Shown here in pieces: positions 1,227-28,338 of a stretch of DNA of 64,000 nt. Made by a program: the position numbers and the translations under genes. Source of the DNA: Deltaproteobacteria bacterium (GTDB lineage Bacteria; Myxococcota_A; Polyangia; GCA-2747355; JADLHG01); assembly GCA_020848905.1 (NCBI GenBank), contig JADLHG010000020.1, positions 8,230 through 72,229 on the forward strand, read 5' to 3'. Numbering within the stretch: position 1 is the stretch's first letter; each line of letters opens with the position of its first letter. The notes under the pieces were generated by a model, which was not told where the DNA came from, did not search any database, and saw only the letters and a program-made list of their open reading frames with translations.

Positions 1227-2647
1227 CGTGGCTCGCGGTGCTCACGGTGGCGCTCGTCGCGCAGGATCAGACTCCGCTCCTCGCCGCCGCCGAGGAGCGG
1301 GCCCCGCGCCAGGCGACGCTCTGGCCCGGCGACTGGCTGGAGGTGCGCGGCGCGCGGCGCGACTATTTGCAGGTCTACGACCACCGGCACGAGCGTCCGG
1401 GGTACGTGCACCGCCGCTTGGTCAGGGCCTACGAGGCGACCGAGGCTGCCGCGCCGAGGCTGCGGGCGGTGATCGAGTTCCTCAGGGAGCAAGCGGGGGG
1501 CGAGGCGCTCGGGATCGGCTACGTCGCGCTCTACCTCAAGGTAGCGCCGCGGAGCGCGCTCGACGCGGAGGTCTTCTCGGCGCTCGGCACCTTCGCCCAG
1601 CGGCTCGCGTACCGGGCGTCGGCGGAGCGCACGAAACGCGGGCAGGACTCGCTCGGCGCGCACCTCGACGTGGCGCGGAGCTACGGCGTGCGTCTCGCGA
1701 GCTTCGAGAGCGACGGTCGCACGCGCACCTGCTACGACGGCGAGGCCTTCCGGCGGGTCCTGGCCTTCAAGGCCCCGCCCGAGCTGAAGGCGCGGGCGGC
1801 GCTCGCGGTGACCGACCCCGCGTGCGTGCACCCCGAGCTCGGGCCGCGCGAACGGCGCACGGTCCTCGAATGGTCGGCCGCGCTCCTCGATAAGGTGGAC
1901 CCGCTCGCGCTGCCGGCCTACCTCGGTAACCGGCTGCGATTGCGGAGCGCGCGCGTGGCCGCGGAGCTGGCCTTCGAGCTGGCCCGCGCGGGCGATCGCG
2001 CGGCAGGAGCCAAACGGGCTGAGGCGGCGCTCGCCTCGCTCTTGCGCGTGGATCGCCGCGAGCTCGCCGAGGCGGATCTCTTCGCGTACGAGGAGACCCG
2101 GGTGCAGGTGGGCACGAGCCGCTACCTGCGCGGGGCCAGGGCGTCGCGACCGGGGCGTGGGCTCGCGCTGCGGCTCGAGCCGCGGGGTCCCGGCGAGACC
2201 TGCGTCAGGCTCTACGCGCGCGGTCGGACGAACGCGAAGGCGGCCGCTCCGCTCGTCGAACGCTGCACGCACGGGCTCGTGCACGCGGCCTCGGCGCGGG
2301 TGGCTCCGCGCGGCGAGCGGTTGGTCCTGGCCGTGCAACCGCTCGCCGGCTGGCTCGAGCTCTGGGTCTTTCAGCGGGGCGAGAAGGGCTTCCAGGTGGA
2401 CGTGGTGGTCCCCGCGACGACCGAGCCGCGCCTCGGGTACGTGGAGCTGGCGGGCTTTTCCCCCGACGGTGGGCGGCTCCTCCTGGCGCGCGAGGTGGTG
2501 GCCGGCCGGAGGTGGGAGCGGCGCTTCGAGGTGCTCGAGGTGGCCACGTTGGCGGTCAAGGAGCAGGGGGCGATGCTTCGCCGCGTGCCGACCTTCCGCC
2601 GCTGGTTCAGCCCCGAGTGGCGCGGCCAGACCCTGGCGCTCCGGTGA
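1223..2647 (+). CDS. hypothetical exported protein, translationally coupled to the SPFH gene
   Basis: ORF 1223..2647. Its ATG overlaps the SPFH stop (ATGA at 1223-1226). The N-terminus MTWLAVLTVALVAQ is signal-like. It has an SH3-like segment (ATLWPGDWLEVRGARRDYLQVYD) and a C-terminal FSPDGGRLLLA (PD40/TolB-like). No family assigned with certainty. Confidence 0.6.
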   Translation: MTWLAVLTVALVAQDQTPLLAAAEERAPRQATLWPGDWLEVRGARRDYLQVYDHRHERPGYVHRRLVRAYEATEAAAPRLRAVIEFLREQAGGEALGIGYVALYLKVAPRSALDAEVFSALGTFAQRLAYRASAERTKRGQDSLGAHLDVARSYGVRLASFESDGRTRTCYDGEAFRRVLAFKAPPELKARAALAVTDPACVHPELGPRERRTVLEWSAALLDKVDPLALPAYLGNRLRLRSARVAAELAFELARAGDRAAGAKRAEAALASLLRVDRRELAEADLFAYEETRVQVGTSRYLRGARASRPGRGLALRLEPRGPGETCVRLYARGRTNAKAAAPLVERCTHGLVHAASARVAPRGERLVLAVQPLAGWLELWVFQRGEKGFQVDVVVPATTEPRLGYVELAGFSPDGGRLLLAREVVAGRRWERRFEVLEVATLAVKEQGAMLRRVPTFRRWFSPEWRGQTLALR

Positions 2648-2847
2648 GCGGCGGGCAAGCGGGCCTTCAGGGCGATCGCGTTCTCGGAAATGGAAGAGCC
2701 TGGGGAGGGCCTAGGGCGCTCGTGACGCGGGCCCTGGCGGACGCCGCCCCCCTCCATACCCCCATGTCCGAGATCTCGACCGCCCTGAGCGGGCCTTGCG
2801 GCGGACTGTGCAAGCGACGGACCCTGCGTTAACGTAGCGCGCAGCTC

Positions 2848-4968
2848 ATGCACGCTCGCCAGCGCGACGACGATCTCCGGCTCGCACGAGGGCTGTTTGC
2901 GGTGCGAGGCCTCTTTCCGTGGGTTCTCCTTCTTACACTCGGGGGCTGTTCGGCCACGACGAGTCCACCGACGCCGCCGACCCCGGGTCCCGCGCGCGCG
3001 CGGGCGCTGCTCGGGGGGCAGCCCGGGGATAGCCCGTGGCCGTCGGACCTCTTCCTCGTCTCGGGCCGGCTGCGGGTGGAACCGCTGCCCTTCAAGGGGA
3101 GCCCGGCGGCGCTGGAGCGGCTCTCGGCGGCGCTCGGCGAGCTGGACGGCGCGCCGGTCCGCACCTCGATCTTCTTCTCCACCGACGGGGCGGGGACCCT
3201 CGCGTCCGGCCCGCAGTCGGGCGCGGTGCGCCTCTACGACCTGACGAGCGAGGCCCCCGCGAGCCCGCGGGAGCTTCCCCTGCACTATCGGGCGGAGACC
3301 CGGGAGCTCGTGGGCGTGATGCCCGCCGACCTCGTGCTCGAGGAGGGGCACCGCTACGCCGGGGTCGTGGACGAGACCTGGCTCGAACCCTCGTCGGCGA
3401 TGGCGCAGGCGCTCGCGGGTCAGGGCCCCTACGCGGCGGTCTACGCGCCGCTGCGGGCTCGCGCGCAGGCGCTCGGTCTCGACCTGTCGCACGTCGGCGC
3501 CGCGACGGTCTTCACGGTCGGTACGCCGAGCGCGCGCCTCGTCGCCCTGCGCCAGCAGCTCGGCGCGACCCCGCTGCCGAAGGCTCGTGTCACGCGCGTC
3601 ATCAAGGGGGCCGAGCTGGACGACTTCTTCGGCACTCCGAGCACCGCGCGCTCGGGCCTCGGCGACCCGAAGGGCGTCGTGCACGAGGCGATCGCCGCGG
3701 TGGTCCTCGGGACCTTCGAGGCGCCCTGGTACCTCTCGCGCTCCACGACGCAGCTCGGACGCATCGTCTACGACGCGACCGGCGCGGCGAAGCAGAACGG
3801 CACGACGGTGATTCCGTTTCTGCTCACGATTCCGAGGCGCCCCCCCGGTAGCACCGAGAAGGTGCCGCTCCTCATCTACCAGCACGGCCTCAATTCCGGG
3901 CGCGTCCAGGCCGCCGTCGTGGCGAACGACTACGCGCGCGCCGGCTACGCGACGATCGGCGCGGACGCCCTCTGGCATAGCGACCGGGCCTCGGGCGCGA
4001 CGGACCTCCTGCACAACCTGAGCGGTGCGGAGGGGCCCGACGGTCTCGCGGACCTGGACCCGCTCGGCGCGCTGACCGTCTTCTTCACCATCAAGGGGGA
4101 CGAGGCGGCCGGGATCGGCGCCTTCGACGGCCGCTACGTGCAGGACAACTTCCGCCAGGCGGTGGTGGAGCTCGGGCAGCTCGTGCGGCTGGCCAAGCTC
4201 GGGGACCTCTCGGCCGTGGCCGCGGCCGACGCGTCGCTGAAGGGGCTCGAGCTCGACGGGCGCCGCGTGGTCTACACCAGCGAGTCCTTCGGCTCGATCC
4301 TGGGCTCGATGCTCACCGCCGTGGACCCCGACCTCGAGGCCGCCGTCCTCTCCGTCGGTGGGGCGGGCCTCTTCCTCCCCATCTTCAGCAACTCTCCCTT
4401 CTTCTCGTCGCTCCTCGAGCTGCTCCTGCGCGGGACCTTCGATGCCCGGATCGAGCTCGGTCGCCCGGATCTGGTCCCCGCGGCGGCGCAGCGCTCGCTG
4501 AACCTCCTGCAGGCGGCGCTCGAGCCGGGCGATCCGGTGGTGTACGTGCGGCGCATCGCCCGCGCGCCGGTCGGGGCGCCGAAGTCGGTGCTCCTCTTTC
4601 AGGCCTATTCCGACGAGATCCTGCCGAACCAGGCCGGCGAGCTCCTCGCGAGCGCCGTCGGGGCGCCGGTGGTCGAGGTCCTCGGCCGCACCATGCCGCT
4701 ACGCTACGTGACCCTGCCCACCGTGAAGCCCCCCCTCAAGGCCAACCTGAACGGCGCCACGGTGGGGGTGCTGAACGTCGCCCCTGCGACCCACACCATG
4801 TACGTCGGCTTCAAGGGAGAGCACGCCTTCGCCTACGGCTTTCCGCCGATCCGGGCCCTCTCCGCGCCCGTGCCGGTGGATAACCCTACCGAGTGGGTGC
4901 ACGACGTGGCCCTGCGCTTCGCCGACAGCTTCCGCCGAGACGGCCTACCGACGATCTCCATTCCGTGA
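2848..4968 (+). CDS. lipoprotein, putative alpha/beta-hydrolase (lipase/esterase-like)
   Basis: ORF 2848..4968. Lipobox LTLGGC|S after a charged N-region, then a Pro/Thr linker. The core has IYQHGLNSGR and a nucleophile-elbow-like YTSESFGS. Confidence 0.65.
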   Translation: MHARQRDDDLRLARGLFAVRGLFPWVLLLTLGGCSATTSPPTPPTPGPARARALLGGQPGDSPWPSDLFLVSGRLRVEPLPFKGSPAALERLSAALGELDGAPVRTSIFFSTDGAGTLASGPQSGAVRLYDLTSEAPASPRELPLHYRAETRELVGVMPADLVLEEGHRYAGVVDETWLEPSSAMAQALAGQGPYAAVYAPLRARAQALGLDLSHVGAATVFTVGTPSARLVALRQQLGATPLPKARVTRVIKGAELDDFFGTPSTARSGLGDPKGVVHEAIAAVVLGTFEAPWYLSRSTTQLGRIVYDATGAAKQNGTTVIPFLLTIPRRPPGSTEKVPLLIYQHGLNSGRVQAAVVANDYARAGYATIGADALWHSDRASGATDLLHNLSGAEGPDGLADLDPLGALTVFFTIKGDEAAGIGAFDGRYVQDNFRQAVVELGQLVRLAKLGDLSAVAAADASLKGLELDGRRVVYTSESFGSILGSMLTAVDPDLEAAVLSVGGAGLFLPIFSNSPFFSSLLELLLRGTFDARIELGRPDLVPAAAQRSLNLLQAALEPGDPVVYVRRIARAPVGAPKSVLLFQAYSDEILPNQAGELLASAVGAPVVEVLGRTMPLRYVTLPTVKPPLKANLNGATVGVLNVAPATHTMYVGFKGEHAFAYGFPPIRALSAPVPVDNPTEWVHDVALRFADSFRRDGLPTISIP

Positions 4969-6540
4969 GCCGCGCCGCTTCCCCGCGCCGCGAAGCGCCG
5001 CGCCGAGGAGCAGGGCCAGGAGGGCGGGGACGAGCCGCGCCTCCGGGTAGAGAGGGCCTCCGGGCGTCGTCGCGTCGCACCCGCAGCCTCCACCGGAGGC
5101 AGGGGAGCCAGCCCCCGCCTCGCCCGTCACGTGGTCGCCCCCTCCGCTGCTTGAGCCGCCGTCGGTGGGTCGAGGCGATCCATCGATATAGGCATCTCCG
5201 ACGGGTGCGCTCAGGTCAGCGGTAGGTCCCCCATCGGGAGTCCCCGCGGCGCCCGGCACGGTGATCATCATGATCGCGTTCGCCACCGGCCGCTCCGCGC
5301 CGTCCGACGGCACGTTCTTGACGGTCCCGTTCACCCACAGCGTGCTCGAGCCGCCGCCGTCCTGGTTGATGCCGTCCGTCGCCTGGAGCTCGTCTTTGCA
5401 GAACGCACCGAGCTCGGCCATGTTCATGCCCTTGCTGCGCGCCGAGCGGCCATCCACCACCACGAAGAAGACGTAGTCGGCGTTGTAGGCGATGGCGGTG
5501 CGCGGGTTCACGATCACGGCCCCTTGCTTGGCCGAGAGGTCCTGCACGACGCCGCCCTTGAGAAAGATCCAGTTGCCTCCCAGGCTGGCGTAGGCCTTGC
5601 TCCAGTCGACCCCGCCCGCTTGCTTGCAGCTCGGGTCGAAGGCGCTGACCTCCTGCGAGAGCTGGACCGTCTGTCCGACGGTGGCCTGGGCCAGCAGCGT
5701 GGTGGCGGCGTTGCCCGAGGCGGAGAGGACGACCTCGTTCGGCCCGAGCGGGGTGTTCCCCTGGTTCCGGCGCACCTCGAGCACCTTGCCGCTCACGCCG
5801 TTCGGCGACGGCACGATGAGGGCCGGCCGGTCCAGACGGACGCGCACCTCGGAGCCGGTGGCGGCGGTGCCCGTCGTGGTGGCCCAGTGCCGGGTGTAGA
5901 CCACGAGCTCGTTGTCCTTGCGCGCGCGGTTCAGGCCGGCGAGCGGCTGGGTCGGGCCCGTCGCGCCGTACCGCACGAGCTGCTTGTTCTTGTCGTGCTT
6001 GACGCACTCCCCGAGGAAGACGGTGCGGTCGAGCTTCCAGACGAAGCCCGAGTAGGCGGTGACGTCGTTGAAGCGCTTGGCGTACCAGCCGCCGACGATC
6101 TGGCCGCTCTCCGGCACGCCCGTGGTCAGGTCGAAGAAGTCCCCGTTGATCGCCGCGACCACCGTGTAGGGCTTGGCGTCGGACTCCCCCCAGTACCCGA
6201 CCGTGCCGTTCGTGCGCGCGGCCATGCTGGAGACCGTCTCGCGGCCGCTGGCGAGCGAGTCCTTGGCGATCGCCGTGTCCAGGATGGCGCGCGACTCCTT
6301 GCGGTCGAGGCGCGTGACGAAGGCGTCGTTCTCGCCGTTGACGCGGAAGGCGCGGTACTCGATCCCCACCCCCACCTTGGACCACTGCGCGAAGCTCGGG
6401 AAGGCGACGAGCGACGCGGCGAGAAAGCCCACCACGCGGAGGAAGGCGAGGGCGTTTCGCGGCGCCCGCTCCGCCCGGGCGGTCCCGGCGCGCGCCGCCC
6501 GGTTCGTGCCGCACTGCGGCGCTGGAGGGTCCTGGCTCAT
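4945..6540 (-). CDS. phosphodiester glycosidase family (DUF2233/NAGPA-like) protein with MYXO-CTERM-like tail
   Basis: ORF 4945..6540. Signal/anchor ALAFLRVVGFLAASLVAFPSFA. Motifs AAINGDFFD and GINQDGGGSSTLWVNG are typical of this family. The C-terminus GGGCGCDATTPGG...LVPALLALLLGAALRGAGKRRGSR matches the MYXO-CTERM pattern. Confidence 0.7.
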   Translation of the reverse strand: MSQDPPAPQCGTNRAARAGTARAERAPRNALAFLRVVGFLAASLVAFPSFAQWSKVGVGIEYRAFRVNGENDAFVTRLDRKESRAILDTAIAKDSLASGRETVSSMAARTNGTVGYWGESDAKPYTVVAAINGDFFDLTTGVPESGQIVGGWYAKRFNDVTAYSGFVWKLDRTVFLGECVKHDKNKQLVRYGATGPTQPLAGLNRARKDNELVVYTRHWATTTGTAATGSEVRVRLDRPALIVPSPNGVSGKVLEVRRNQGNTPLGPNEVVLSASGNAATTLLAQATVGQTVQLSQEVSAFDPSCKQAGGVDWSKAYASLGGNWIFLKGGVVQDLSAKQGAVIVNPRTAIAYNADYVFFVVVDGRSARSKGMNMAELGAFCKDELQATDGINQDGGGSSTLWVNGTVKNVPSDGAERPVANAIMMITVPGAAGTPDGGPTADLSAPVGDAYIDGSPRPTDGGSSSGGGDHVTGEAGAGSPASGGGCGCDATTPGGPLYPEARLVPALLALLLGAALRGAGKRRGSRNGDRR

Positions 6541-19674: not shown

Positions 19675-20862
19675 CTAGCCGCGCTTGCGACGCCGGCCGA
19701 AGCCGAAGGCCAGGGCAACGAAGGTGAGCAGGACGAGCGGCAGGCGCGCGTCCGAGCCACCGACGGTGCAGCCGGTGTCCGCCTCCTCGCCCGAGAACTT
19801 CGGTCCCGAGACGCGGGCGTCGCTGCCCGGTGCGGGCGAAGGCCCGGCGTCGGTGCGGCCGGCGTCCTTCTTCACGGGCCCGGCCTCGCCCGACGGACCC
19901 GCGTCGCACTTCACGTAGGTCGTCTCGTAGATCGTCTGGCGGAAGTCGGCCTGCGCGGGGTCCTTCTCGAGGCTGATGTCTCCGGTGAGCGCGCTCCCCC
20001 AGAACTGGAGGTCCAGCTTGGTCAGGCGATCCCCCGCGAGCGCCAGCTTCGCCAGCTCCGGGGTGCCGGCGAGCTGCGCGCTCGAGAGGCTGCCGGAGAA
20101 GCGGAGCTGGCCGGCCACGCCCTTCGTGAGCGTGCGCTGCTGCTCCGCCGCGAGCGTGAAGACGCGCCAGCCGAAGGGTTGGCTCGCCGAGCCGCCGAGC
20201 GCGGCGATGCGCGCCGGGATGACGGCGGTCCGGGTCTCGAAGGCGAGCGTGAGCGGCCCGAGGTCGCCGCAGAGCTGCGAGCCCGGGGGCGGCGCCTTGC
20301 TGTCGGCGGTGATCTTGAAGGCCACGAAGTACCAGCCCTGCGTCACGTAGTGGCCGAAGGTCGCGGCCGAGGCCTTGTCGTAGGGGAACTTGTTCGCGTC
20401 CAGCCAGTCGGTGAAGGCGGCCGCGGTGTCGGCCTTGAGCAGGACCCAGTCGAAGATGCCGACCTGGCCCTTGTTCACGACGGTGACCTGCGAGGCCCCG
20501 GCGTCGGGCCCCTTGCCCCCCCAGCCGCCCGGCTCGGGCACGCCGCGGTCACCGAGGCAGGCGGTGCGCTTCTCGATGCGCGGCGCGGAGAGCGCCTCGA
20601 GCTCGGCGAAGAGCTTCACGTCGGCCAGCGAGGGATTCGCGAGGAGCTTGCCCGGCACGGGGAGCACGAGCCCGAACTCGGCCGCCTGGCCGCAGAAGTG
20701 CGGGTTGAAGACGTAGGTCTCGCTGGTGCCGCGGAAGGCGATCAGGATGCGCTGCGAGGGATCGATGTGCAGGCCGTCGCCGAAGCCGCCGCCGCAGGGG
20801 AGCGCGACGCGCGGCACGAGCACCAGCGTGGAGAGCACGAGAGTCGTCAGGGTGCGCAGCAT
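19675..20862 (-). CDS. DUF2330-like secreted protein with MYXO-CTERM-like tail
   Basis: In-frame ATG at 20862 in ORF 19675..21162. The signal MLRTLTTLVLSTLVLVPRVALP runs straight into CGGGF, which is the DUF2330-type N-terminus as I recall it. The C-terminus is DTGCTVGGSDARLPLVLLTFVALAFGFGRRRKRG. The start lies 2 nt after the stop of the upstream gene. Confidence 0.65.
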   Translation of the reverse strand: MLRTLTTLVLSTLVLVPRVALPCGGGFGDGLHIDPSQRILIAFRGTSETYVFNPHFCGQAAEFGLVLPVPGKLLANPSLADVKLFAELEALSAPRIEKRTACLGDRGVPEPGGWGGKGPDAGASQVTVVNKGQVGIFDWVLLKADTAAAFTDWLDANKFPYDKASAATFGHYVTQGWYFVAFKITADSKAPPPGSQLCGDLGPLTLAFETRTAVIPARIAALGGSASQPFGWRVFTLAAEQQRTLTKGVAGQLRFSGSLSSAQLAGTPELAKLALAGDRLTKLDLQFWGSALTGDISLEKDPAQADFRQTIYETTYVKCDAGPSGEAGPVKKDAGRTDAGPSPAPGSDARVSGPKFSGEEADTGCTVGGSDARLPLVLLTFVALAFGFGRRRKRG

Positions 20863-20864
20863 GG

Positions 20865-21899
20865 CTAGCTCCTCTCCGGGTAGGCGCAACGGAAGCCCAC
20901 GTTGTAGGCCCAGCTCGACGGCAGCTCGGCCTTGCGGCACGAGACGCGCAGCGAGTCGGCACCCGCGGCCCAGCAGCCGCCGCGCATCACCTTCAGGCGG
21001 CCCGAGGCCGGTCCCTGCGGGTCCTTCGTGTCGCTCGTGGCGTAGTAGCCCGCCGCGTACCAGTCCGCGGTCCACTCCCAGACGTTGCCCGCCAGGTCGT
21101 GCGCGCCATAGAGGCTCGCGCCGGCCGGGCGGCGTCCTACGCGGTCCGTATCGCCCACGCACGAACCGGGGCCGCCGTGGTTCGCCTTCAGACAGTCGGG
21201 GGCCGAGTCACCCCAGGGGTAGACGCGCTTCGACGGAGCCGGGCCGCGCGCGGCCTTCTCCCATTCGGCTTCCGTCGGAAGCCTTCCGCCGGCGAAGCGG
21301 CAGAAGGCCTGGGCCTGGTGCCAGTCGACGAAGATCACCGGGTAGTCGGCGAAGCGCGGGTCCCCGTAGTACTCGGCGCGGCGGTGCGAGCCGAGGAGCG
21401 CCGGGCGCGTGCACTGCTTCGCGGCGACGCAGGCCTCGTAGCGGCGGTTCGTGACCTCGTGGCGGTCGAGGCGCAGCCCCGAGACCACCACGCGGTGTTC
21501 CGGGCGCTCGTCGGGGGCGCCCACGCCGGCGGGGCTGCCCATCAGGAAGGCGCCGGCGGGGACGGAGACGGAGCGGCGATCGATCGTGGGCGCAGCGCAG
21601 CTCGCGAGGCCCTCGTCCACCAGCGTGTCGCAGTTGTCGTCGCGCCCGTTGCACTGCTCGGGTCGGCCCGGATGCACGGCCGCATCGCGGTCGTTGCAGT
21701 CGGGGCCCTTGGCGCAGCCGGGACCGTAGCCGTCTCCGTCCTGATCCGAGGCGCAGGAAGCCGCGGCGCCCGGCGCAGCCGAAGCAGCGCGCGCGCGAGC
21801 GGCCCCGGGCTTCTCGCCGGCCCGCGGCGTCGGAGCGAAGGCCCAGAGCGCGCCGACGGCGGCGCATAGGCCCAGGCTAAAGGTAATGGACGTGCGCAT
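20865..21899 (-). CDS. FGE-sulfatase (SUMF1/formylglycine-generating-enzyme-like) domain protein with Cys-rich metal-binding-type N-terminal module
   Basis: ATG at 21899 in ORF 20865..21989 gives the signal MRTSITFSLGLCAAVGALWA. A DQDGDGYGPGCAKGPDCNDRDAAVHPG..EQCNGRDDNCD repeat follows. The FGE-type core has HRVVVSGLRLDRHEVTN, RLPTEAEWEKAARG, GNVWEWTADWY and MRGGCW. Confidence 0.8.
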   Translation of the reverse strand: MRTSITFSLGLCAAVGALWAFAPTPRAGEKPGAARARAASAAPGAAASCASDQDGDGYGPGCAKGPDCNDRDAAVHPGRPEQCNGRDDNCDTLVDEGLASCAAPTIDRRSVSVPAGAFLMGSPAGVGAPDERPEHRVVVSGLRLDRHEVTNRRYEACVAAKQCTRPALLGSHRRAEYYGDPRFADYPVIFVDWHQAQAFCRFAGGRLPTEAEWEKAARGPAPSKRVYPWGDSAPDCLKANHGGPGSCVGDTDRVGRRPAGASLYGAHDLAGNVWEWTADWYAAGYYATSDTKDPQGPASGRLKVMRGGCWAAGADSLRVSCRKAELPSSWAYNVGFRCAYPERS

Positions 21900-22149
21900 G
21901 AGGTCCCTCCTCGTGAGTGTGCCGAGTCGCGCCAGCTTCCTGTGCGGCGCGGATCCCTCGGTTAGCAGGCCGCGTGCCAGACGCCGCACGCCTTCTACCT
22001 ACAATGATCGCAATGGCTTGAATCAGCGTTGGCGCAGCGGGCTGTGCGCCAGCCTGTGCCAAGGTCCCGGGCACAGGGCACGAAATTTCGTGCCGGGCCC
22101 TTCGTGCTGGGCCCTTCGTGCCGCGGGGCCTGGCCGTGCCGCGCCCTGC

Positions 22150-24375
22150 CTACCGGCACTCGTAGCGGTAGTAGGTCTGACCCTCGGGGCTCGTGAGGTC
22201 GATGGGGCAGCAGCGCTGGCTCGGGTCGCAGACGCGGAATTTCATCGAGGGTCCGTAGTAGTGCAGGTCGCAGATGCTCGCCTCGCTCGGGTGGCGGCAG
22301 GCTCCTTCGTAGCAGTACTCGCCGCGGCGGCAGAGTCGGCCGCAGGCCCCGCAGTGGATGGGGCCCTGCGTCGGGCCGCCCGTGCCGACCTTGAGATCCA
22401 CGCAGGCCTTGACGCAGGCGTTCCCGTGCCAGCTCGGGAAGGGGCAGAGCGTCTCGTTCGACTTGCACGGTGTGTACGGCTCGAGGTTCGCCTTGCAGGT
22501 GGCCTCCCGGCCCGGCGCACAGCACGAGCCCCCGATGCAGCTCCAGGTACCCGTGGGCGAGAGCGCCGTGCAGTCCGAGGCGCCCGACGGCGGCGGAATC
22601 CACCAGGCCGGCGGATGCGCTTCCGCCCAGTAGCGCGCGCACGCTTTCGCGTCCGAACAGAAGCTCGCGTCCCCCGTGTAGAACGGCTTGCAGGTGCCGT
22701 CGCTGTCGCAGTACTCGCCGAGCGTGCAGGCGTGGCCGCAGCTCCCGCAGTAGATGGTCTGCGCCTGGTCGTCCGGGTTGGTGTTCGGCTTCTTCGGCTT
22801 CAGCTCGAGGCAGCGCCCAGAGCAGCAGGTGAAGCCCTCCGTGCACGAGGGCGAGCAGGCGACGGTCGGGCACTCCTTCGGTGCGCTGCAGGTGTCGCAG
22901 CGCGCGCTGCAGCTCGCGCCGGCCGCGCAGCCGTTCGGGCTCGCGGTGGGGTCGCAGCGTTCACCGGGGCTCGCCTTGCCATCCCCGCAGCAGACGCACT
23001 CGCCTGGCCGCTGGCTTTGCGTGGGGCGATCCGAGACCCGCCGTCCGAAGGTCAGGTCCGCGGCGGCCGCGCTCGTCCCGTCACGTTCCACGAACGGGCT
23101 TTCCTTCGTGCCGGCCGCCCACGCCGCGGCGAGTGCCGCTCCGAGGTCCGGCTTCGCGCCCGTGACGGAGAAGTTCTTGAGCAGGTAGTGCGTGGCGGGG
23201 CAGGCGGGGAGCGCCAGGCTGGCCTCGCTGGCCTCGTCGCTCGACGCGGAGGTGAAGACGCGCTCCACCCCGGGCACCGCGGCGAGGGCGATCTGAAAGC
23301 CGCCGCTGAAGCAGGCCTCGAGGACGACGGTGATGTGGCAGGCCTTGAGCTGCTTGAGCGCGTCCGCGAGCTCGGCCTCGGAGATGAAGCGCTTGCCGAG
23401 CCGGACGTCCCAGCTCAGCGCTTCGCCCGGTCGCGCTGCGGCGACGAGCTGCCCATTGTCGTAGACCTGACCGTCCTCGCCGTAGAAGAGAAAATCATCG
23501 ACGCCGGCGGCGTTCTTGCGCGTCACCCGTCGCGCGCCGTGGGCGTTCACGAAGACCACCACCTCGTCGCAGCACTCGACCTGCGAGGCGAGGCCCGCGA
23601 GCGCCTGCAGGAAGGTGTCTCCCGCGCCGGGGTCCTTCGCGCCCCAGGCTCCGAGGAGCACGTCGAAGCCGAGCGCGCTCAGGGTGACCCACATCGCGTG
23701 CCCCGTGGCGAGGAGCAGGTCCTCGCCCGTGCCGTTGCCGGTGCCGATCACGCCGTAGCGGCGCGGCGCGCGGCCCGAGGCGCAGGTGACGTGCCGCTGC
23801 GAGGTGCGTAGCAGCACGTCCTTGGGCGGCTCGACGGTCGGCGGCGGGACGACTCGCCCACGGTAGGTGCTGTAGACCGTGAGGGCCTCGCTCGCGAGCT
23901 CGCCGAGGCGGGTCGGAAAGGCCGCGCGCCCGTCGAGGAGCGGCCAGTTCGAGGCGTGCCGGACGCTGACCGCCCCCGAGCTCTCGGAGACCAGCACGTG
24001 CCGCAGCGGGTGCTCGAGCAGCCGATGCGGCGCGTCGTCGATGACGAAGAGAAAGGAGGCCTCGCCGAGCGTCAGGCTATCCCGCCGCCCGTCCACGCCC
24101 AGGCGCGCGCCGGCCGCCGCCACCTGCGGCAGGGCGTAGACGATCACGTCGTGGTCGAGCGTCTTCCAGCCCAGCACCTCGTCGAGCACGCGCCGCTGCA
24201 CGGCGCTGAGCCCGGCCCGCGGTTCGGGCGCGGAACCGGAGGGTGGAGGGCTCTCGCTCGGGCTCTTGCAGGCGCCGCTGACGCCGACGGCCACGGCGCA
24301 GACCAGCAGGCCGAGCCAGGCGGCGGCGCGGCGGCGGGCAGGTTCGAAGCCCTCTTCTCGTTCGCGGCTCGGCAT
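22150..24375 (-). CDS. lipoprotein with clan-CD (legumain C13 / caspase-like) cysteine peptidase core and ~280-aa Cys-rich C-terminal region
   Basis: ORF 22150..24375. Lipobox GVSGAC|K. VVVFVNAHGARR (His-Gly, about codon 279) and ITVVLEACFSGGF (Cys, about codon 355) resemble the legumain/caspase catalytic dyad context. The C-terminal part (23001..22150) has repeated CGSCGHACTLGEYCDSDGTC / CGACGRLCRRGEYCYEGAC modules. Confidence 0.65.
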   Translation of the reverse strand: MPSREREEGFEPARRRAAAWLGLLVCAVAVGVSGACKSPSESPPPSGSAPEPRAGLSAVQRRVLDEVLGWKTLDHDVIVYALPQVAAAGARLGVDGRRDSLTLGEASFLFVIDDAPHRLLEHPLRHVLVSESSGAVSVRHASNWPLLDGRAAFPTRLGELASEALTVYSTYRGRVVPPPTVEPPKDVLLRTSQRHVTCASGRAPRRYGVIGTGNGTGEDLLLATGHAMWVTLSALGFDVLLGAWGAKDPGAGDTFLQALAGLASQVECCDEVVVFVNAHGARRVTRKNAAGVDDFLFYGEDGQVYDNGQLVAAARPGEALSWDVRLGKRFISEAELADALKQLKACHITVVLEACFSGGFQIALAAVPGVERVFTSASSDEASEASLALPACPATHYLLKNFSVTGAKPDLGAALAAAWAAGTKESPFVERDGTSAAAADLTFGRRVSDRPTQSQRPGECVCCGDGKASPGERCDPTASPNGCAAGASCSARCDTCSAPKECPTVACSPSCTEGFTCCSGRCLELKPKKPNTNPDDQAQTIYCGSCGHACTLGEYCDSDGTCKPFYTGDASFCSDAKACARYWAEAHPPAWWIPPPSGASDCTALSPTGTWSCIGGSCCAPGREATCKANLEPYTPCKSNETLCPFPSWHGNACVKACVDLKVGTGGPTQGPIHCGACGRLCRRGEYCYEGACRHPSEASICDLHYYGPSMKFRVCDPSQRCCPIDLTSPEGQTYYRYECR

Positions 24376-24464: not shown

Positions 24465-24908
24465 TTAACCCTTCATCATCTCCGCCAGGCGGCGGACGAT
24501 CTCCTCGCGCGAGACGAGCTCCACCACGGCGCAGATCGTCCAGCGGTTGCCGCCGCTGTCCTTCACCGTGGCCGAGCGATAGCCCCAGGCCTGATTCTTC
24601 GGCGGCTCCACGGAGGTCGCCCCCGCTTCGAGCGCGCGCCCGTAGGAAGCATCCACGGCCTTGGCGTCCGCCACGTAGTAGGAGAACGCGGCGGGCATCG
24701 CTTCCATCCCCATCATGGGCTCGCCGCACATCACGACGCTGTCGCCGAGGAGGAGCTCGGCGTGCATCAGCGCGCCGTTCGGGCCGTCGTAGCGATCCAC
24801 CACCTTCGCGCCGAAGGCCTGCTCGAGAAAGCGCACCACCTTGCCCGCTCCCTGGACGACGAAGGCCGGCGTGATGGTGTGATGACCGTAGGGACGAAGA
24901 TGGGACAT
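24465..24908 (-). CDS. VOC family (glyoxalase/bleomycin-resistance/PhnB-like) protein
   Basis: ORF 24465..24908. [26 protein letters not shown]...[18 protein letters not shown] and [17 protein letters not shown] match the VOC/PhnB-type pattern. No signal peptide. Confidence 0.8.
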
Positions 24909-24989: not shown

Positions 24990-26915
24990 CTAGAAGGTAC
25001 CGGTTACCCCCACCATCCCGCCCCCCGGTGCGGGGCCGAAGGCCAGGTTCAGGTTGAGGTCCGGGTCCTCGCGGTAGAGACGCAGCATGCGTTCCATGGG
25101 GGTCTCCATGTAGCGCAGCGAGACGCCGAGGCCGAAGAGGAGCGCGCTCATGGCTCCGCCCATGACGTAGATCGCGGCGGGGAGGTTGGTGCTCGACAAG
25201 CGGGCGTCCACGATGCCGATCGCCACGGTGGCACCGAGGAGCAGGCCCCCCTCGACGAAGGCCAGCGCGGAGACGAGGCGCCGGCGGCGGGCCTCGCGTT
25301 CGGCGAGCTCGAGGAGGTGCGCTTCGGTGCGGGCCACGACGGACTCGAAGCTCGCCCCGGGGCGTCGGAGCTCGTCTTCGAAGGCGGCGTAGGCCTTCTC
25401 CCCCTCCGAGCGCGCGAAGAGCCGCAGGAGGCCGGTGGCCGCGAGGGCGCCGCCCCCGCCGAGGAGCACGATCGCGGAGATCTTGGTCGTCTGGTCGAGC
25501 TCGCCGCTCTTCATGCCGAGGATCACGCCCCCCGAGGCGGCCACGACCAGGCCCCCGAGGGCGCTCGTGCCGGCGAGGGTCAGCCGGTCGGCGCGGTCGG
25601 CGCGGGCGAGCGCCGCCAGGTAGTGCCGCATGCGCACCTCGTCGCGCCAGGAGATGCCGAAGACCTCTTCGGCCGCCGGGTGCCGTCGTTCGCGCGCGTA
25701 GGCTTCGGGGCCGAAGGGCTCGGCGAAGAACTCCTCGTAGAGCGCGTCGTCCCCGCGGGCGAGGAGTGGCGTCGGGCGCGGGGTGAGCATCACCGAGGCG
25801 GTCGAGGTGGGCAGGCGGATCTCGCGCAGCGTGGGGCGCCCCCCTTTGCCGCGGGCCGCGACGAGCTCTTGCACGATGGCGCCCTCGGTCACGGGCATGG
25901 GCAAGACCAGCGTCAGCTCGCGCCCCCGCTCCTTGTGGACGTCGAGGAGGCGCGTCCCCTGGAGGTCCCGCACCCAGACCCGCTGCGCCGGCGGGCCGAG
26001 CACGAGCTTGCGCCCCACCGCGCGGTCCACGGCGAACAGCGAGGCGCCTCCGTTCTGGTAGGGCCCGCGTGCGAAGACCTTGGGGCGGAAGTGCTCGTTC
26101 TTGATGCGGCGATTCGCTATCGCCACGAAGGCCGCGAGCTCGTCGTACGAGACGCGCCCGTCGCCGTTCGCGTCCGCGGCGCCGGAGAGGCCCGAGCGCA
26201 CCTCGTGGCTGAAGATCCCCGACTGCAGCTCCGACCATTCGTAGACCTCGCCGGCCGCGCTCGTGGAGAGGAAGACCCCGACCTGCGGAAAGCGCTCCAC
26301 GAAGCCGAGCTTCAGGTCCTTCGGGGTGGCCCAGCGGCGGCCGCCGGCCTTGCGCGGGCTGATCACGAAGAAGGAGTTGCAGCTGTCGAGGATCAGGTGC
26401 GCGCGGTGGGCGGGGACCTTTCCCAGCACCTCCCGCTCCAGCTCCTCGGGCCCGAGCCGGCCGTCCTCGAGCTCGAGGTAGCCCTTGCCGCGGTCCACTT
26501 GCCCGTGGCCGGCGAAGACGAAGTAGAAGACCGTGTGCAGTCCCTTTGCACGGGCCGCGCGCACCGCGTCGGCGAGCTCGCGCACGGCCTGACGCAGCTC
26601 GGCGCGCCGAGGGGCCCGCGCGGTGGCCCCGAGCCCCGGATAGAGCGCGGCCGTGGGACGATCGAAGCGCGTGAGCAGGCGCAGGTGCCCGGGTTCGGTG
26701 ATGGTGCGGAAGACCTGCACGTAGCGCGCCCCGTCGTCGTCGGCGTACTGCAGGTTCGGTCGGTGCGGCAGGAGGCTCCGGTTGTTCGTCACCACGAGCG
26801 TGAAGCCGACCTCGGAGGCGGCTTCGACGGGCGACACACTGGCGAGGAGCAGGGCGGCCAGACCCGCCAGCACACCGAACGGTCTGGAACCCGTCGCGAG
26901 CCGACGCCTCCTCAT
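24990..26915 (-). CDS. exported caspase-family (peptidase C14-like) protein with Ca-binding-type loop and four C-terminal TM helices
   Basis: ATG at 26915 in ORF 24990..27422. Signal MRRRRLATGSRPFGVLAGLAALLLASVSPVEA|AS. Catalytic contexts YFVFAGHGQ (His137) and HLILDSCNS (Cys179). ADANGDGRVSYDELAAFV loop. Four hydrophobic helices near the C-terminus (for example LGGLVVAASGGVILGM and AIVLLGGGGALAATGLLRLF). The start overlaps the anti-sigma stop (ATGA). Confidence 0.75.
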   Translation of the reverse strand: MRRRRLATGSRPFGVLAGLAALLLASVSPVEAASEVGFTLVVTNNRSLLPHRPNLQYADDDGARYVQVFRTITEPGHLRLLTRFDRPTAALYPGLGATARAPRRAELRQAVRELADAVRAARAKGLHTVFYFVFAGHGQVDRGKGYLELEDGRLGPEELEREVLGKVPAHRAHLILDSCNSFFVISPRKAGGRRWATPKDLKLGFVERFPQVGVFLSTSAAGEVYEWSELQSGIFSHEVRSGLSGAADANGDGRVSYDELAAFVAIANRRIKNEHFRPKVFARGPYQNGGASLFAVDRAVGRKLVLGPPAQRVWVRDLQGTRLLDVHKERGRELTLVLPMPVTEGAIVQELVAARGKGGRPTLREIRLPTSTASVMLTPRPTPLLARGDDALYEEFFAEPFGPEAYARERRHPAAEEVFGISWRDEVRMRHYLAALARADRADRLTLAGTSALGGLVVAASGGVILGMKSGELDQTTKISAIVLLGGGGALAATGLLRLFARSEGEKAYAAFEDELRRPGASFESVVARTEAHLLELAEREARRRRLVSALAFVEGGLLLGATVAIGIVDARLSSTNLPAAIYVMGGAMSALLFGLGVSLRYMETPMERMLRLYREDPDLNLNLAFGPAPGGGMVGVTGTF

Positions 26916-27745
26916 CGCGCACCTCGCAGCGTCAGGGACCACTCCTGCACGTGCGCCTCGGGAAAGAGCCGCGCGAGCGAGGGGGCCTTCCCGGCGTCGC
27001 GCAGGAGCGCCTCCACCTGCTTCACCGAGCGGCGCTGCCGCGAGACGACCGAGACGGCGCGCAGGAGGCCGGGCTTCGCGTCGGGGGCGAAGACCTCGTG
27101 GAGCATCACGCGGCGCCCCCGCGGCAGGTCGAGCGCGAGCGGAGCCTTCGCCGGGTCGTCCCAGCGGGGGGCCGCCCAGTGCACCTCTCCCCCGGCCTCG
27201 ACGACGAAGACCAGCAGATAGAGCGGCGTGGGGGTGAGCCGGCTCACCTCGACCGCGAGACCCTCGTCGGCCGCGAGCAGATCGTGCGCGTTCAGGCGCC
27301 GGGGAGCGCCGTGCCGCTTTGCCGCGTAGAGCTCGACCCCCGTCAGCTCCTTCAGGCTCTCGGCCGTCGGACCGCCGCCGCGGGCCTGAAAGGTCTCCGC
27401 GCGACCGCCGGTGTGGCGCCACAGATAGACGCAGAGCGGAACGGTCACCGCGAGCACCGTGGCCGCGAGCGCGTAGGGGAGCCAGGAGGCGCGCGACGTC
27501 GCGGTGGGCGAGGGGTCGAGCCGGGCCATCGTGCGCGCCACGAAGGCCGCGGTGTCGGGCGAGGCGTCAGACGACACGCCTGGGGCCGGCGAGGCGATGG
27601 CCGCGAGCGTGACCTCGAGCCGAGAGGCGCGCGACCGGCACTCGCCGCATTCACCGAGGTGCGCCTCGAGGGCGCGAGCGCGCGCCACGGCCACCTGCTC
27701 CTCGCGCAGCGCAAGCAACTCGTCGTCGCTGGGGCAGCTCGTCAT
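26912..27745 (-). CDS. anti-sigma factor (zf-HC2 type), single-pass membrane protein
   Basis: ATG at 27745 in ORF 26912..28852. The N-terminus MTSCPSDDELLALREEQ...HLGECGECRSR has the H-x3-C-x2-C zinc motif. TM segment WLPYALAATVLAVTVPLCVYLW. Extracytoplasmic domain of ~170 aa. The start overlaps the sigma-factor stop (ATGA). Confidence 0.7.
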   Translation of the reverse strand: MTSCPSDDELLALREEQVAVARARALEAHLGECGECRSRASRLEVTLAAIASPAPGVSSDASPDTAAFVARTMARLDPSPTATSRASWLPYALAATVLAVTVPLCVYLWRHTGGRAETFQARGGGPTAESLKELTGVELYAAKRHGAPRRLNAHDLLAADEGLAVEVSRLTPTPLYLLVFVVEAGGEVHWAAPRWDDPAKAPLALDLPRGRRVMLHEVFAPDAKPGLLRAVSVVSRQRRSVKQVEALLRDAGKAPSLARLFPEAHVQEWSLTLRGAR

Positions 27746-28338
27746 GCGGAAACCTCCAGTCGGGCGCGTAGCGCGCGCAGACCCAAAAAGACGCGGGAGC
27801 GCACGGTGGCCTCGGGCGCGTCGACGATCGCTCCCACCTCGGCGTACGAGAGCCCTTCGCCGAAGCGCAGCAGCACGGCCTCGCGTAGCTTGGGGGAGAG
27901 ACCCCGGAGCTCGCGGTGCACACGTTCCGTGCGTTCGCGCCGGAGGAGCGCGTCGAGCTGCTCGGCGCGGTGCGACGGCTCGTTTGCCGCCGGGGCGTCC
28001 TGGAGCACGCGCTCGCGGCGAAAGAACCCGCGACGCGCGTTGCGGCAGACGTTGCGCACGATGGTGAAGAGGTACACGGCAAACTGCCCGTCCGGCCGAT
28101 AGCGCGCCCGGGCCTGCCAGAGCCGCAGAAACGCCTCCTGGGCCAGGTCCTCGCTGCGCGCGCCGTCCCACTTGGCGCAGAAGCTCCGCACCCGTCGCTC
28201 GTGTCGCGCGACGAGCGCGGCGAAGGCCTCGCGCAACCCGGCCGCCGCGAGCTCCATCAGCTCGTCGTCGGAGCGTGCCGCGAGCCCGCCCGGTTCGGGG
28301 CGCGGAAACGGCAGCACCTTGGGCTCGAAGCCGGGCAT
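27742..28338 (-). CDS. ECF (sigma-70 family, group 4) RNA polymerase sigma factor
   Basis: ORF 27742..28338. Region 2 (DLAQEAFLRLWQARARYRPDGQFAVYLFTIVRNVCRN) and region 4 (LSPKLREAVLLRFGEGLSYAEVGAIVDAPEATVRSRVFLGLRALR) are both recognisable. Confidence 0.9.
   Translation of the reverse strand: MPGFEPKVLPFPRPEPGGLAARSDDELMELAAAGLREAFAALVARHERRVRSFCAKWDGARSEDLAQEAFLRLWQARARYRPDGQFAVYLFTIVRNVCRNARRGFFRRERVLQDAPAANEPSHRAEQLDALLRRERTERVHRELRGLSPKLREAVLLRFGEGLSYAEVGAIVDAPEATVRSRVFLGLRALRARLEVSA

Follow-up and report, generated by a model that had tools for sequence, protein, structure and literature searches.

Results

The window analysed here is a 64,000-nucleotide stretch of a Deltaproteobacteria bacterium contig (JADLHG010000020.1). 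Its reverse strand carries, at positions 22150..24375, a complete ORF of 741 codons plus stop, as read from the ORF list and the sequence, and its product is the same, residue for residue, as the MAG protein filed at NCBI under 'hypothetical protein IT371_09600 [Deltaproteobacteria bacterium]'. A GGAG-type ribosome-binding site lies about 8-11 nt 5' of the ATG. Third-position GC per 100-codon block ranges from 0.87 to 0.94, tail included (about 0.92 throughout), and since it is high in all blocks and matches the level of the neighbouring genes, the entire frame is taken as genuine coding sequence. The protein contains 48 Cys, 40 of them within the last 286 residues (14% Cys there), which bears out the dozens of C-terminal Cys remarked upon in an earlier, sequence-only reading of this DNA.

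Residues 1-36 (24268..24375, reverse strand) read directly as a lipoprotein signal peptide with the n-region ARRR, the h-region LGLLVCAVAVGV and the lipobox VSGA/C36. The lipobox GVSGAC/K proposed earlier is confirmed in that Cys36 follows a positive n-region and a hydrophobic h-region. The hallmark of bacterial lipoproteins, a signal peptide that closes with a lipobox and has Cys at +1, is thus present by reading of the sequence, and most full-length homologues share the N-terminal Cys behind a hydrophobic leader (P0002, P0004, P0006, P0007, P0008 and P0010-P0012 among them). Residue +2 is Lys37 in IT371_09600, while G, S, E and H occur at this position among the homologues.

The signal peptide is followed by a family-specific N-terminal domain (residues 58-171; 23863..24204, reverse strand) of one helix and about seven beta-strands, with the motif SFLFVIDDAPxxLxxHPLRHVLV and near-invariant D113, P116, H122 and P145. 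This domain of about 115 residues precedes the CD protease domain in 110 of 132 family sequences. No confident structural relative was found for it in the PDB, and Foldseek returned nothing. PepSY (PF03413; propeptide of M4 peptidases, YpeB and YpmB) was the only Pfam family to turn up repeatedly, in 5 of 41 N-domain sequences (best E 0.06, all below significance), and neither sequence nor fold gave a significant match that would make the domain a PepSY member. The two resemble each other in having a helix followed by a beta-sheet that ends in a '...RYVLVDaxTGxv' strand, and, as regards the M4 enzymes, in standing N-terminal to a secreted peptidase; the present domain is about twice as long and, unlike PepSY, has its own invariant His/Asp/Pro positions.

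Residues 201-457 (23005..23775, reverse strand) form a clan-CD cysteine peptidase domain of the caspase/legumain/metacaspase fold. The His that had been singled out at codon 279 (23539..23541, reverse strand) was verified in the context VVVFVNAHGARR; it stands at the end of a beta-strand (CCDEVVVFVNAHG) and aligns to the HG-motif His of metacaspase-4. Likewise, the Cys at codon 355 (23311..23313, reverse strand) was found in the context ITVVLEACFSGGF, at a strand end (CHITVVLEACFSGGF), and aligns to Cys139 of Arabidopsis metacaspase-4, the residue replaced by Ala in the C139A entry 6w8r. As in clan CD generally, His comes before Cys and is followed by Gly, and both residues close a hydrophobic strand at its C-terminal end (VVVFVNAH279G and ITVVLEAC355). 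In the structural model a central beta-sheet, mainly parallel, lies within the alpha/beta/alpha arrangement of the caspase-hemoglobinase fold, so that the unrelated fold named earlier as speaking against a clan-CD assignment did not emerge. Conservation of the dyad, for which a check had been proposed, is nearly complete among 52 homologues (H279 51/52, G280 51/52, C355 50/52, G358 49/52). The residue two before Cys355 (E353 here) is D or E in 46/52 and D in 37/52, and a CCD motif ahead of the His strand and a CH motif ahead of the Cys strand are conserved in the same set. C198, C268, C269, C346 and C460 count among the conserved Cys. The His strand is separated from the helix that follows by a beta-rich insertion of about 45 residues (residues ~285-330; 23386..23523, reverse strand; DSSP strands at model residues 243-296), which is confined to the closest subfamily and gapped in P0009, P0012 and P0014-P0016.

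A conserved Cys linker (residues 460-496; 22888..22998, reverse strand; CVCCGDGKASPGERCD...) joins the protease domain to the C-terminal tail. C460 is present in 35 of 52 homologues, and CxCCGDG is kept in the close ones. The linker looks like the start of DUF4215/Myxococcus cysteine-rich repeats, a resemblance confined to CGDGxxxxxExCD: the linker itself gave no match to this repeat (PF13948, TIGR02232), and the homologue P0006 scored 19.2 bits against PF13948, where the cut-off is 27 (E 1.5e-3). The following tail (residues 497-741; 22153..22887, reverse strand) has a GC3 of 0.93-0.94, which indicates coding. It had no homologue among 252 collected proteins, in the word-index search or in its own family, and no Pfam match; against the MXAN_6577-like cysteine-rich protein (NCBIfam NF041328) it reached 25.8 bits, compared to a cut-off of 100, in two stretches within residues 537-694. 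Of the Cys repeats described in the sequence-only reading, both quoted motifs are present (residues 543 and 675), but they belong to only two copies of a motif of about 33 residues and do not form a regular array. Copy 1 (residues 541-573; 22657..22755, reverse strand; IYCGSCGHACTLGEYCDSDGTCKPFYTGDASFC) and copy 2 (residues 673-702; 22270..22359, reverse strand; IHCGACGRLCRRGEYCYEGACRHPSEASIC) align locally with a score of 83, as compared to a shuffle mean of 32 (z = 8.8, 500 shuffles). The Cys count in the last 286 residues is even (40), which would allow every one of them to pair in disulfides once outside the cytoplasm. To judge by these figures, the tail is real coding sequence and unique to this protein.

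The family was found by an exhaustive HMMER scan and comprises about 128 sequence clusters, unannotated, derived only from metagenomes and named 'hypothetical protein' in every source. When the full protein was used in a word-index homology search, its only match was itself; as the HMMER scan uncovered a family, this lone self-match reflects limited sensitivity and not orphan status. Names of MAGs in the family include Myxococcales and 'Deltaproteobacteria', and since no relatives came to light in two scans of GTDB representative genomes, the taxonomic range rests on these few names. The C-terminal modules vary among 60 homologues (TSP3, CarboxypepD_reg, Big_7, NHL, DUF11 and PEGA), and Cys-rich C-termini of differing sequence occur in P0004, P0006, P0021 and P0022. 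Neither IT371_09600 nor the caspase-like gene upstream of it matched PADLOC defence models.

This upstream gene (24990-26915, reverse strand) has an invariant HG plus DSC dyad. The profile of its family found only its EF-hand in the PDB, and the evidence that the protein is caspase-like consists of the invariant dyad and Pfam C14 matches in 15 of 32 homologues. The earlier placement of a second clan-CD protease about 600 nt upstream was therefore apt as regards the caspase-like character, but the interval is not empty: it contains a glyoxalase/VOC-family ORF of 147 aa (24465-24908, reverse strand; Pfam Glyoxalase E 2.4e-9). The contig of the closest homologue (L005) looked syntenic at first, but the likeness was rejected: its 642-aa upstream gene arose from the IT371_09600 family as a tandem paralogue and does not encode the EF-hand caspase, and the 145-aa intervening gene, considered as a glyoxalase counterpart, is unrelated to the glyoxalase.

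Discussion

Placement of the domain within clan CD was approached via curated families and profile comparisons. The only protease-family Pfam match of IT371_09600 is Peptidase_C13 (PF01650), at 14.7 bits as compared to a gathering score of 22.8 (E 0.022, residues 330-404 only), no PF00656 (C14) match appears at E<=1, and the protein scores below every curated family threshold tried. Among its closest homologues (P0002-P0008), only P0002 has a C13 match (14.9 vs 22.8 bits, E 0.019) and none reaches the gathering score. Over 60 homologues, Peptidase_C13 matches 26 (best 4e-12; the commonest Pfam match) and Peptidase_C14 matches 20 (best 1.2e-6). Whereas phmmer with the single sequence found only noise in the PDB, the family profile matched metacaspase-4 at 6.6e-15, GSU0716 (3bij) at 1e-13 and legumains at 1e-4 or worse, the legumain chains over the catalytic core only. 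The fold search gave a tie between C13 and C14 types. Judging by the profile scores, the relationship of the family to C14 is real but remote.

Metacaspases and bacterial orthocaspases (MEROPS C14B; Arabidopsis metacaspase-4 6w8s, Geobacter GSU0716 3bij) are thus the best sequence-profile match for the family and share with IT371_09600 the H-G and D/E-x-C-x-S-G motifs that end hydrophobic strands. Bacterial metacaspases are, in a further likeness, often fused to varied accessory domains and export signals (PMC3501461). The differences are that IT371_09600 has a lipoprotein anchor and, in comparison with described orthocaspases, a dedicated N-terminal domain, and that it lacks a PF00656 match and carries the CCD and CH motifs as well as the beta insertion after His seen in its close subfamily. 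Gingipains (C25) and kindred secreted bacterial clan-CD proteases are similarly exported and have non-catalytic parts on both sides of the protease, a domain at the N-terminus and modules at the C-terminus; their structural match is much weaker than that of C13/C14, their prodomain has no detectable similarity to the N-domain described here, and IT371_09600 has no T9SS C-terminal domain.

Taken together, we consider IT371_09600 to be a lipoprotein that is exported and has as its core a clan-CD endopeptidase domain (His279/Cys355) able to catalyse, belonging to a small family known only from metagenomes and MAGs, with a dedicated N-domain and a member-specific C-terminal extension, and put the probability of this reading at about 0.7. 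The domain would be catalytically competent in view of its intact dyad, and the lipobox points to an exported, lipid-anchored protein. After Sec export, lipidation at Cys36 would anchor it to a membrane on the periplasmic side. For lipoproteins of Myxococcus xanthus, Lys at +2 is reported to be an inner-membrane retention signal, with 8 of 12 inner-membrane lipoproteins having it (PMC3222651). Lys37 therefore speaks against the earlier description of the protein as surface-tethered and suggests retention in the inner membrane, although the M. xanthus rule may not hold in this MAG. The N-domain may pack on the protease domain and either chaperone it within the molecule or keep it latent. The protease might cut envelope or secreted protein substrates, and the oxidised Cys-rich tail could serve as a rigid spacer or, as the sequence-only reading had it, in binding.

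The sequence-only reading had spoken of a legumain/caspase-like protein of clan CD. The clan-CD dyad stands, whereas the legumain part does not: as the C13 and C14 thresholds are both missed and the family profile lies closer to metacaspases than to legumains, the name legumain is not warranted for this protein. An identity as a true member of MEROPS C13, i.e., an Asn/Asp-specific endopeptidase or transpeptidase, would agree with the EAC before the catalytic Cys, which is identical to that of legumain, and with the C13 matches given above. The C13 group (legumain, asparaginyl endopeptidase, GPI8; 4aw9, 5h0i, 7w72_K) acts in an extracytoplasmic compartment, as is predicted for IT371_09600. Moreover, hhalign of the family with a human legumain sequence paired His148 and Cys189 at a probability of 78%. 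This alignment covered the dyad region only (legumain residues 136-222), leaving outside it the S1 residues Arg44/His45/Asp231, which could not be aligned. In human legumain, a zwitterionic S1 pocket of Arg44, His45, Ser216 and Asp231 confers Asn/Asp specificity (PMC4357240). The region after beta-1 in IT371_09600 reads GTGNGTGEDLL, without Arg-His. An acidic residue two before the catalytic Cys is common to metacaspases (DSC) and legumains (EAC), and most of the family has DxC and not EAC. The extra domain of legumain is C-terminal and that of IT371_09600 N-terminal; the C-terminal activation peptide and LSAM prodomain of legumain have no counterpart in its unrelated Cys-rich C-terminus, which matched nothing in the PDB or Pfam. 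We thus regard a legumain identity as unlikely. Loss of catalysis, leaving a clan-CD pseudo-enzyme that acts as a binding or scaffold lipoprotein, has a slim chance: bacteria do have pseudo-orthocaspases (PMC6426788), and the long insertion directly after the catalytic His could distort the active site, but IT371_09600 retains the whole dyad along with the Gly that follows His and the SG that follows Cys, and these positions hardly vary across the family, whereas described pseudo-variants have Tyr/Ser in place of His/Cys.

Two readings of the wider locus must also be weighed. The sequence-only reading had suggested a proteolytic cascade of two clan-CD enzymes from one putative transcription unit. 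In its fuller form, with the unit under control of the ECF sigma factor and the cascade running in two steps in the periplasm, this idea would fit the common strand of all genes from 28338 to 22150, the short gaps of 81 and 89 nt flanking the glyoxalase gene, in which no terminator-like site occurs, the export signals on both proteins, which would place both protease domains in the periplasm, and the invariant dyad of the upstream protein. However, the upstream gene is part of a conserved ECF sigma/anti-sigma/caspase trio (ECF sigma gene at 27742-28338 here), which is followed by unrelated genes at two further loci (L006 and L007), an unrelated glyoxalase-family gene intervenes, and the adjacency recurs in 0/8 related loci, the upstream family being absent from all five loci of the IT371_09600 family and the latter from all three loci of the former. 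On these grounds the cascade is unsupported and improbable. Multi-metacaspase operons are, besides, already known in Deltaproteobacteria, and co-occurring metacaspase genes are common and by themselves no sign of a cascade (PMC3501461). It is hardly credible that the C-terminal 245 residues arose by read-through, frameshift or misassembly in a high-GC genome. Long spurious ORFs do abound in high-GC DNA, and no homologue of the tail was found in any search, but its GC3 equals that of the homology-supported part and of the neighbouring genes, its Cys motif is internally repeated, the number of Cys is even, the conserved CxCCGDG linker runs straight into it, and other family members have Cys-rich C-termini of their own.

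For the preferred reading, that of an exported clan-CD lipoprotein, neither the fold nor the dyad nor the modular build would surprise a specialist, since the enzyme type is well known, and the finding opens no long-standing question; the family's own N-terminal domain and the unique disulfide-rich tail are modestly new features. Clan-CD proteases of bacteria other than pathogens have, to our knowledge, received hardly any study. We tentatively propose, as a rather speculative extension, that proteins combining the N-domain with the CD domain constitute an undescribed clan-CD family apart from C13/C14, in which the N-domain, with its invariant His122 and near-invariant Asp113, would be a new built-in regulator (latency, prodomain or metal-dependent switch) of a cysteine protease in the periplasm, and the target would be set by C-terminal modules that can be exchanged, the unique 20-disulfide tail among them. 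The conserved pairing of the protease with an N-domain that has no confident structural relative offers a testable case for latency of envelope cysteine proteases. With respect to annotation, the label clan-CD peptidase can now be given to a group of lipoproteins from Myxococcota-type MAGs.

Results and Discussion

The gene for the caspase-fold lipoprotein at 22150-24375 (minus strand) codes for 741 residues, and its product is identical to the NCBI MAG protein 'hypothetical protein IT371_09600 [Deltaproteobacteria bacterium]'. The entire frame genuinely codes for protein rather than being an artefact of high GC, since its GC3 (0.87-0.94 per 100-codon block, cysteine-rich part included) equals that of the neighbouring genes throughout; the GC content of the window is about 72%. 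Every feature named in the sequence-only reading was recovered at its coordinates: the lipobox Cys36 read from the sequence (...AVGVSGAC, then K), preceded by a charged n-region and then by a hydrophobic h-region, His279-Gly280 in VVVFVNAHGARR (codon 23539-23541, minus strand), Cys355 in ITVVLEACFSGGF (23311-23313, minus strand) and the cysteine-rich end.

Taken alone, the protein reached no curated family threshold in Pfam or NCBIfam: Peptidase_C13 (legumain family) was matched with E 0.022 and 14.7 bits, below the cut-off of 22.8, NCBIfam caspase_w_EACC1 with E 0.014, under its curated threshold, and phmmer against the PDB returned noise only. Among 60 homologues, Pfam Peptidase_C13 was matched by 26 (best 4e-12) and Peptidase_C14 (caspase/metacaspase family) by 20. 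P145, H279, G280, C355 and G358 were the only near-invariant positions in the 60-sequence alignment; in a 52-sequence alignment, His279 and Gly280 were each present in 51 and Cys355 in 50, with an acidic residue at -2 from Cys355 in 46. The family profile matched Arabidopsis metacaspase-4 at 6.6e-15, Geobacter GSU0716 at 1e-13 and further metacaspases, followed by legumains and GPI8 from 1e-4, and the profile alignment paired the family HG with the metacaspase HG and the family Cys with metacaspase-4 Cys139, the residue exchanged in the C139A entry. All 41 top structural matches had the clan-CD fold, being mostly clan-CD peptidases with a few non-catalytic caspase-like domains (Raptor/Kog1, c-FLIP); scores were 19.4 for legumain 4aw9 and metacaspase-9, 18.8 for GPI8 and OaAEP1, 18.6 for metacaspase-4, 17.2 for GSU0716, 16.5 for caspase-9, 16.2 for MALT1 and about 14 for the gingipains. 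Because the top matches share the fold and the dyad is conserved, the predicted assignment as a clan-CD lipoprotein protease, the core of the sequence-only reading, is confirmed; neither an unrelated fold nor a variable dyad was found.

The more specific legumain label was not supported. The target's own EAC motif resembles legumain and Pfam matches among the homologues slightly favour C13 over C14, but in the profile match metacaspases lead legumains by some ten orders of magnitude, DxC is the consensus across the family (D in 37/52) and an LSAM-type C-terminal prodomain is absent. The structural match is a tie between legumain and metacaspase, and the profile comparison with human legumain covered no more than the His148-Cys189 core (probability 78%), leaving the S1 pocket outside the alignment. 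Neither the legumain nor the caspase label can thus be claimed, and we regard it as a separate, remote branch of clan CD close to C13/C14.

A word-index homology search matched the target only to itself, which should not be taken for orphan status. An exhaustive HMMER scan, run with residues 37-470 against 1.84 billion representatives, detected 128 clusters at E<=1e-3 and seven at E<=1e-30, namely the target's own (P0001) and six homologues (P0002-P0007) with 32-42% identity over essentially the whole query. That the word-index search overlooked homologues with 42% identity, which full HMMER scored at E 1e-83, is likely due to its candidate list being filled by low-complexity and cysteine-rich words. 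The relatives come from Myxococcales and Deltaproteobacteria MAGs, and named relatives of the neighbouring gene from Polyangiaceae and Polyangia MAGs; a Myxococcota origin is likely, not proven. The target is a member of an unannotated clan-CD family known from metagenomes only. A variant of a familiar enzyme type, it is unsurprising to the specialist, yet it helps annotation and could sensibly be taken up by structural and enzymological work.

What defines the family is an N-terminal domain without a confident structural relative. When HMMs of residues 58-171 and 201-457 were run against all collected sequences, the N-domain preceded the protease domain in 110 of 132, the remainder being mostly short fragments. 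The N-domain carries the motif WFFxIDDxPxAxFxHPxRYVLV with His122 invariant and D113, P116 and P145 near-invariant, and was modelled alone very confidently (pLDDT 94.8); no PDB sequence relative and no Pfam or NCBIfam family was found for it. Its occurrence without the protease domain (P0031, P0045, P0058, P0092, P0097, P0117 and P0118) suggests an autonomous module; P0031 (457 aa) has four tandem copies, and among the proteins of about 130-185 aa that seem to consist of the N-domain alone, some may be fragments. Furthermore, in the close subfamily a beta-rich insertion of 45 residues follows the catalytic His. Also conserved are a CCD motif ahead of the His strand (C268, C269, D270; D270 in 45/52), a CH motif ahead of the Cys strand (C346, H347; H347 in 44/52) and a Cys at either end of the protease domain (C198, C460), spanning window positions ~22996-23784; these may form structural disulfides or a metal site.

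After the protease domain follows a conserved CxCCGDG...E.CD linker resembling the start of DUF4215/Myxococcus Cys-rich repeats, a family matched by homologue P0006 only, under cut-off. The tail past residue 497 had no match within the family, in the word-index search or in Pfam, its only match being sub-threshold, to NCBIfam MXAN_6577-like Cys-rich proteins (25.8 vs 100 bits). The proposed Cys-rich repeats stood as to cysteine content, with 40 Cys in the final 286 residues; as to repeats, just two copies of the 33-residue motif I[YH]CGxCGxxCxxGEYCxxxGxC...[DE]ASxC were found (z 8.8). The C-termini of other members differ widely (TSP3, CarboxypepD_reg, Big_7, NHL, DUF11, other Cys-rich modules), and the extension is therefore a variable accessory module, the target having acquired a unique disulfide-rich tail. 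The plausible lipobox is also seen in homologues. Its +2 residue is Lys, found in 8 of 12 inner-membrane lipoproteins of Myxococcus xanthus, where a +2 Lys signal sequence kept mCherry in the inner membrane (PMC3222651). If this rule holds here, the protein would sit on the inner membrane facing the periplasm, off the cell surface, which points away from the surface tethering proposed earlier.

The second clan-CD-type protease proposed upstream (24990-26915, minus strand) proved clan-CD-like: this 641-aa protein has a signal peptide, a caspase-like domain, an EF-hand and C-terminal TM segments, with FAGHG and LDSCNSFF invariant among its >750 homologues, mostly from Polyangia-type MAGs, and Peptidase_C14 matched by 15 of 32. 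It belongs to a conserved, translationally coupled trio with an ECF sigma factor (27742-28338, minus strand; Pfam Sigma70_r2/r4) and an anti-sigma-like protein with one TM segment (26912-27745, minus strand; weak zf-HC2), whose gene overlaps each neighbour by 4 nt. The trio recurs in L006 (6618-9902) and L007 (6489-9947), with overlaps of 4-14 nt and identities of 59%, 37% and about 54%. Because the periplasmic caspase domain adjoins the anti-sigma factor, the arrangement suggests Ca2+-dependent regulated proteolysis of the latter. The trio arguably holds more interest than the target itself.

A proteolytic cascade of the two enzymes found no such backing. The gap of ~600 nt taken as intergenic holds a glyoxalase/VOC-family gene (24465-24908, minus strand; 147 aa, Pfam E 2.4e-9) that is not conserved beside either protease family. 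Six-frame HMM scans found the upstream family in none of the five loci with target homologues (L001-L005) and the target family in none of the three with the upstream family (L006-L008), and different genes follow the trio in each locus. L005, where the closest homologue P0002 lies (42% identity), has a pair of tandem paralogues with N-domain and protease domain (1693-3621 and 4476-6410) instead of the upstream family. Since the families do not co-occur in these loci, the adjacency is local and a functional cascade gains nothing from it. The two genes may still be co-transcribed in this organism, as the gaps around the glyoxalase gene are short and hold no terminator-like sites. Operons with several metacaspase genes are already known from Deltaproteobacteria (PMC3501461).

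Right after the target stop lies a 3' region whose RNA is strongly structured (22030-22152, minus strand; dG -76 kcal/mol, z -4.5), a stability equalled by none of 200 shuffles. It includes the perfect palindrome GGCACGAAATTTCGTGCC (22077-22094) and direct repeats GCACGAAGGGCC, and could act as a terminator lacking a U-tract or as a site for protein binding. After a 250-nt gap follow an FGE-sulfatase gene with a MopE Cys motif (20865-21899, minus strand) and, overlapping it by 4 nt, a DUF2330 gene (19675-20862, minus strand). FGE-sulfatase may be linked functionally to clan-CD proteases, as it ranks fifth by frequency among the domains found fused to metacaspases in prokaryotes (PMC3501461). 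Two FGE-sulfatase genes were also observed in L008 (3352-5331), near its upstream-family gene.
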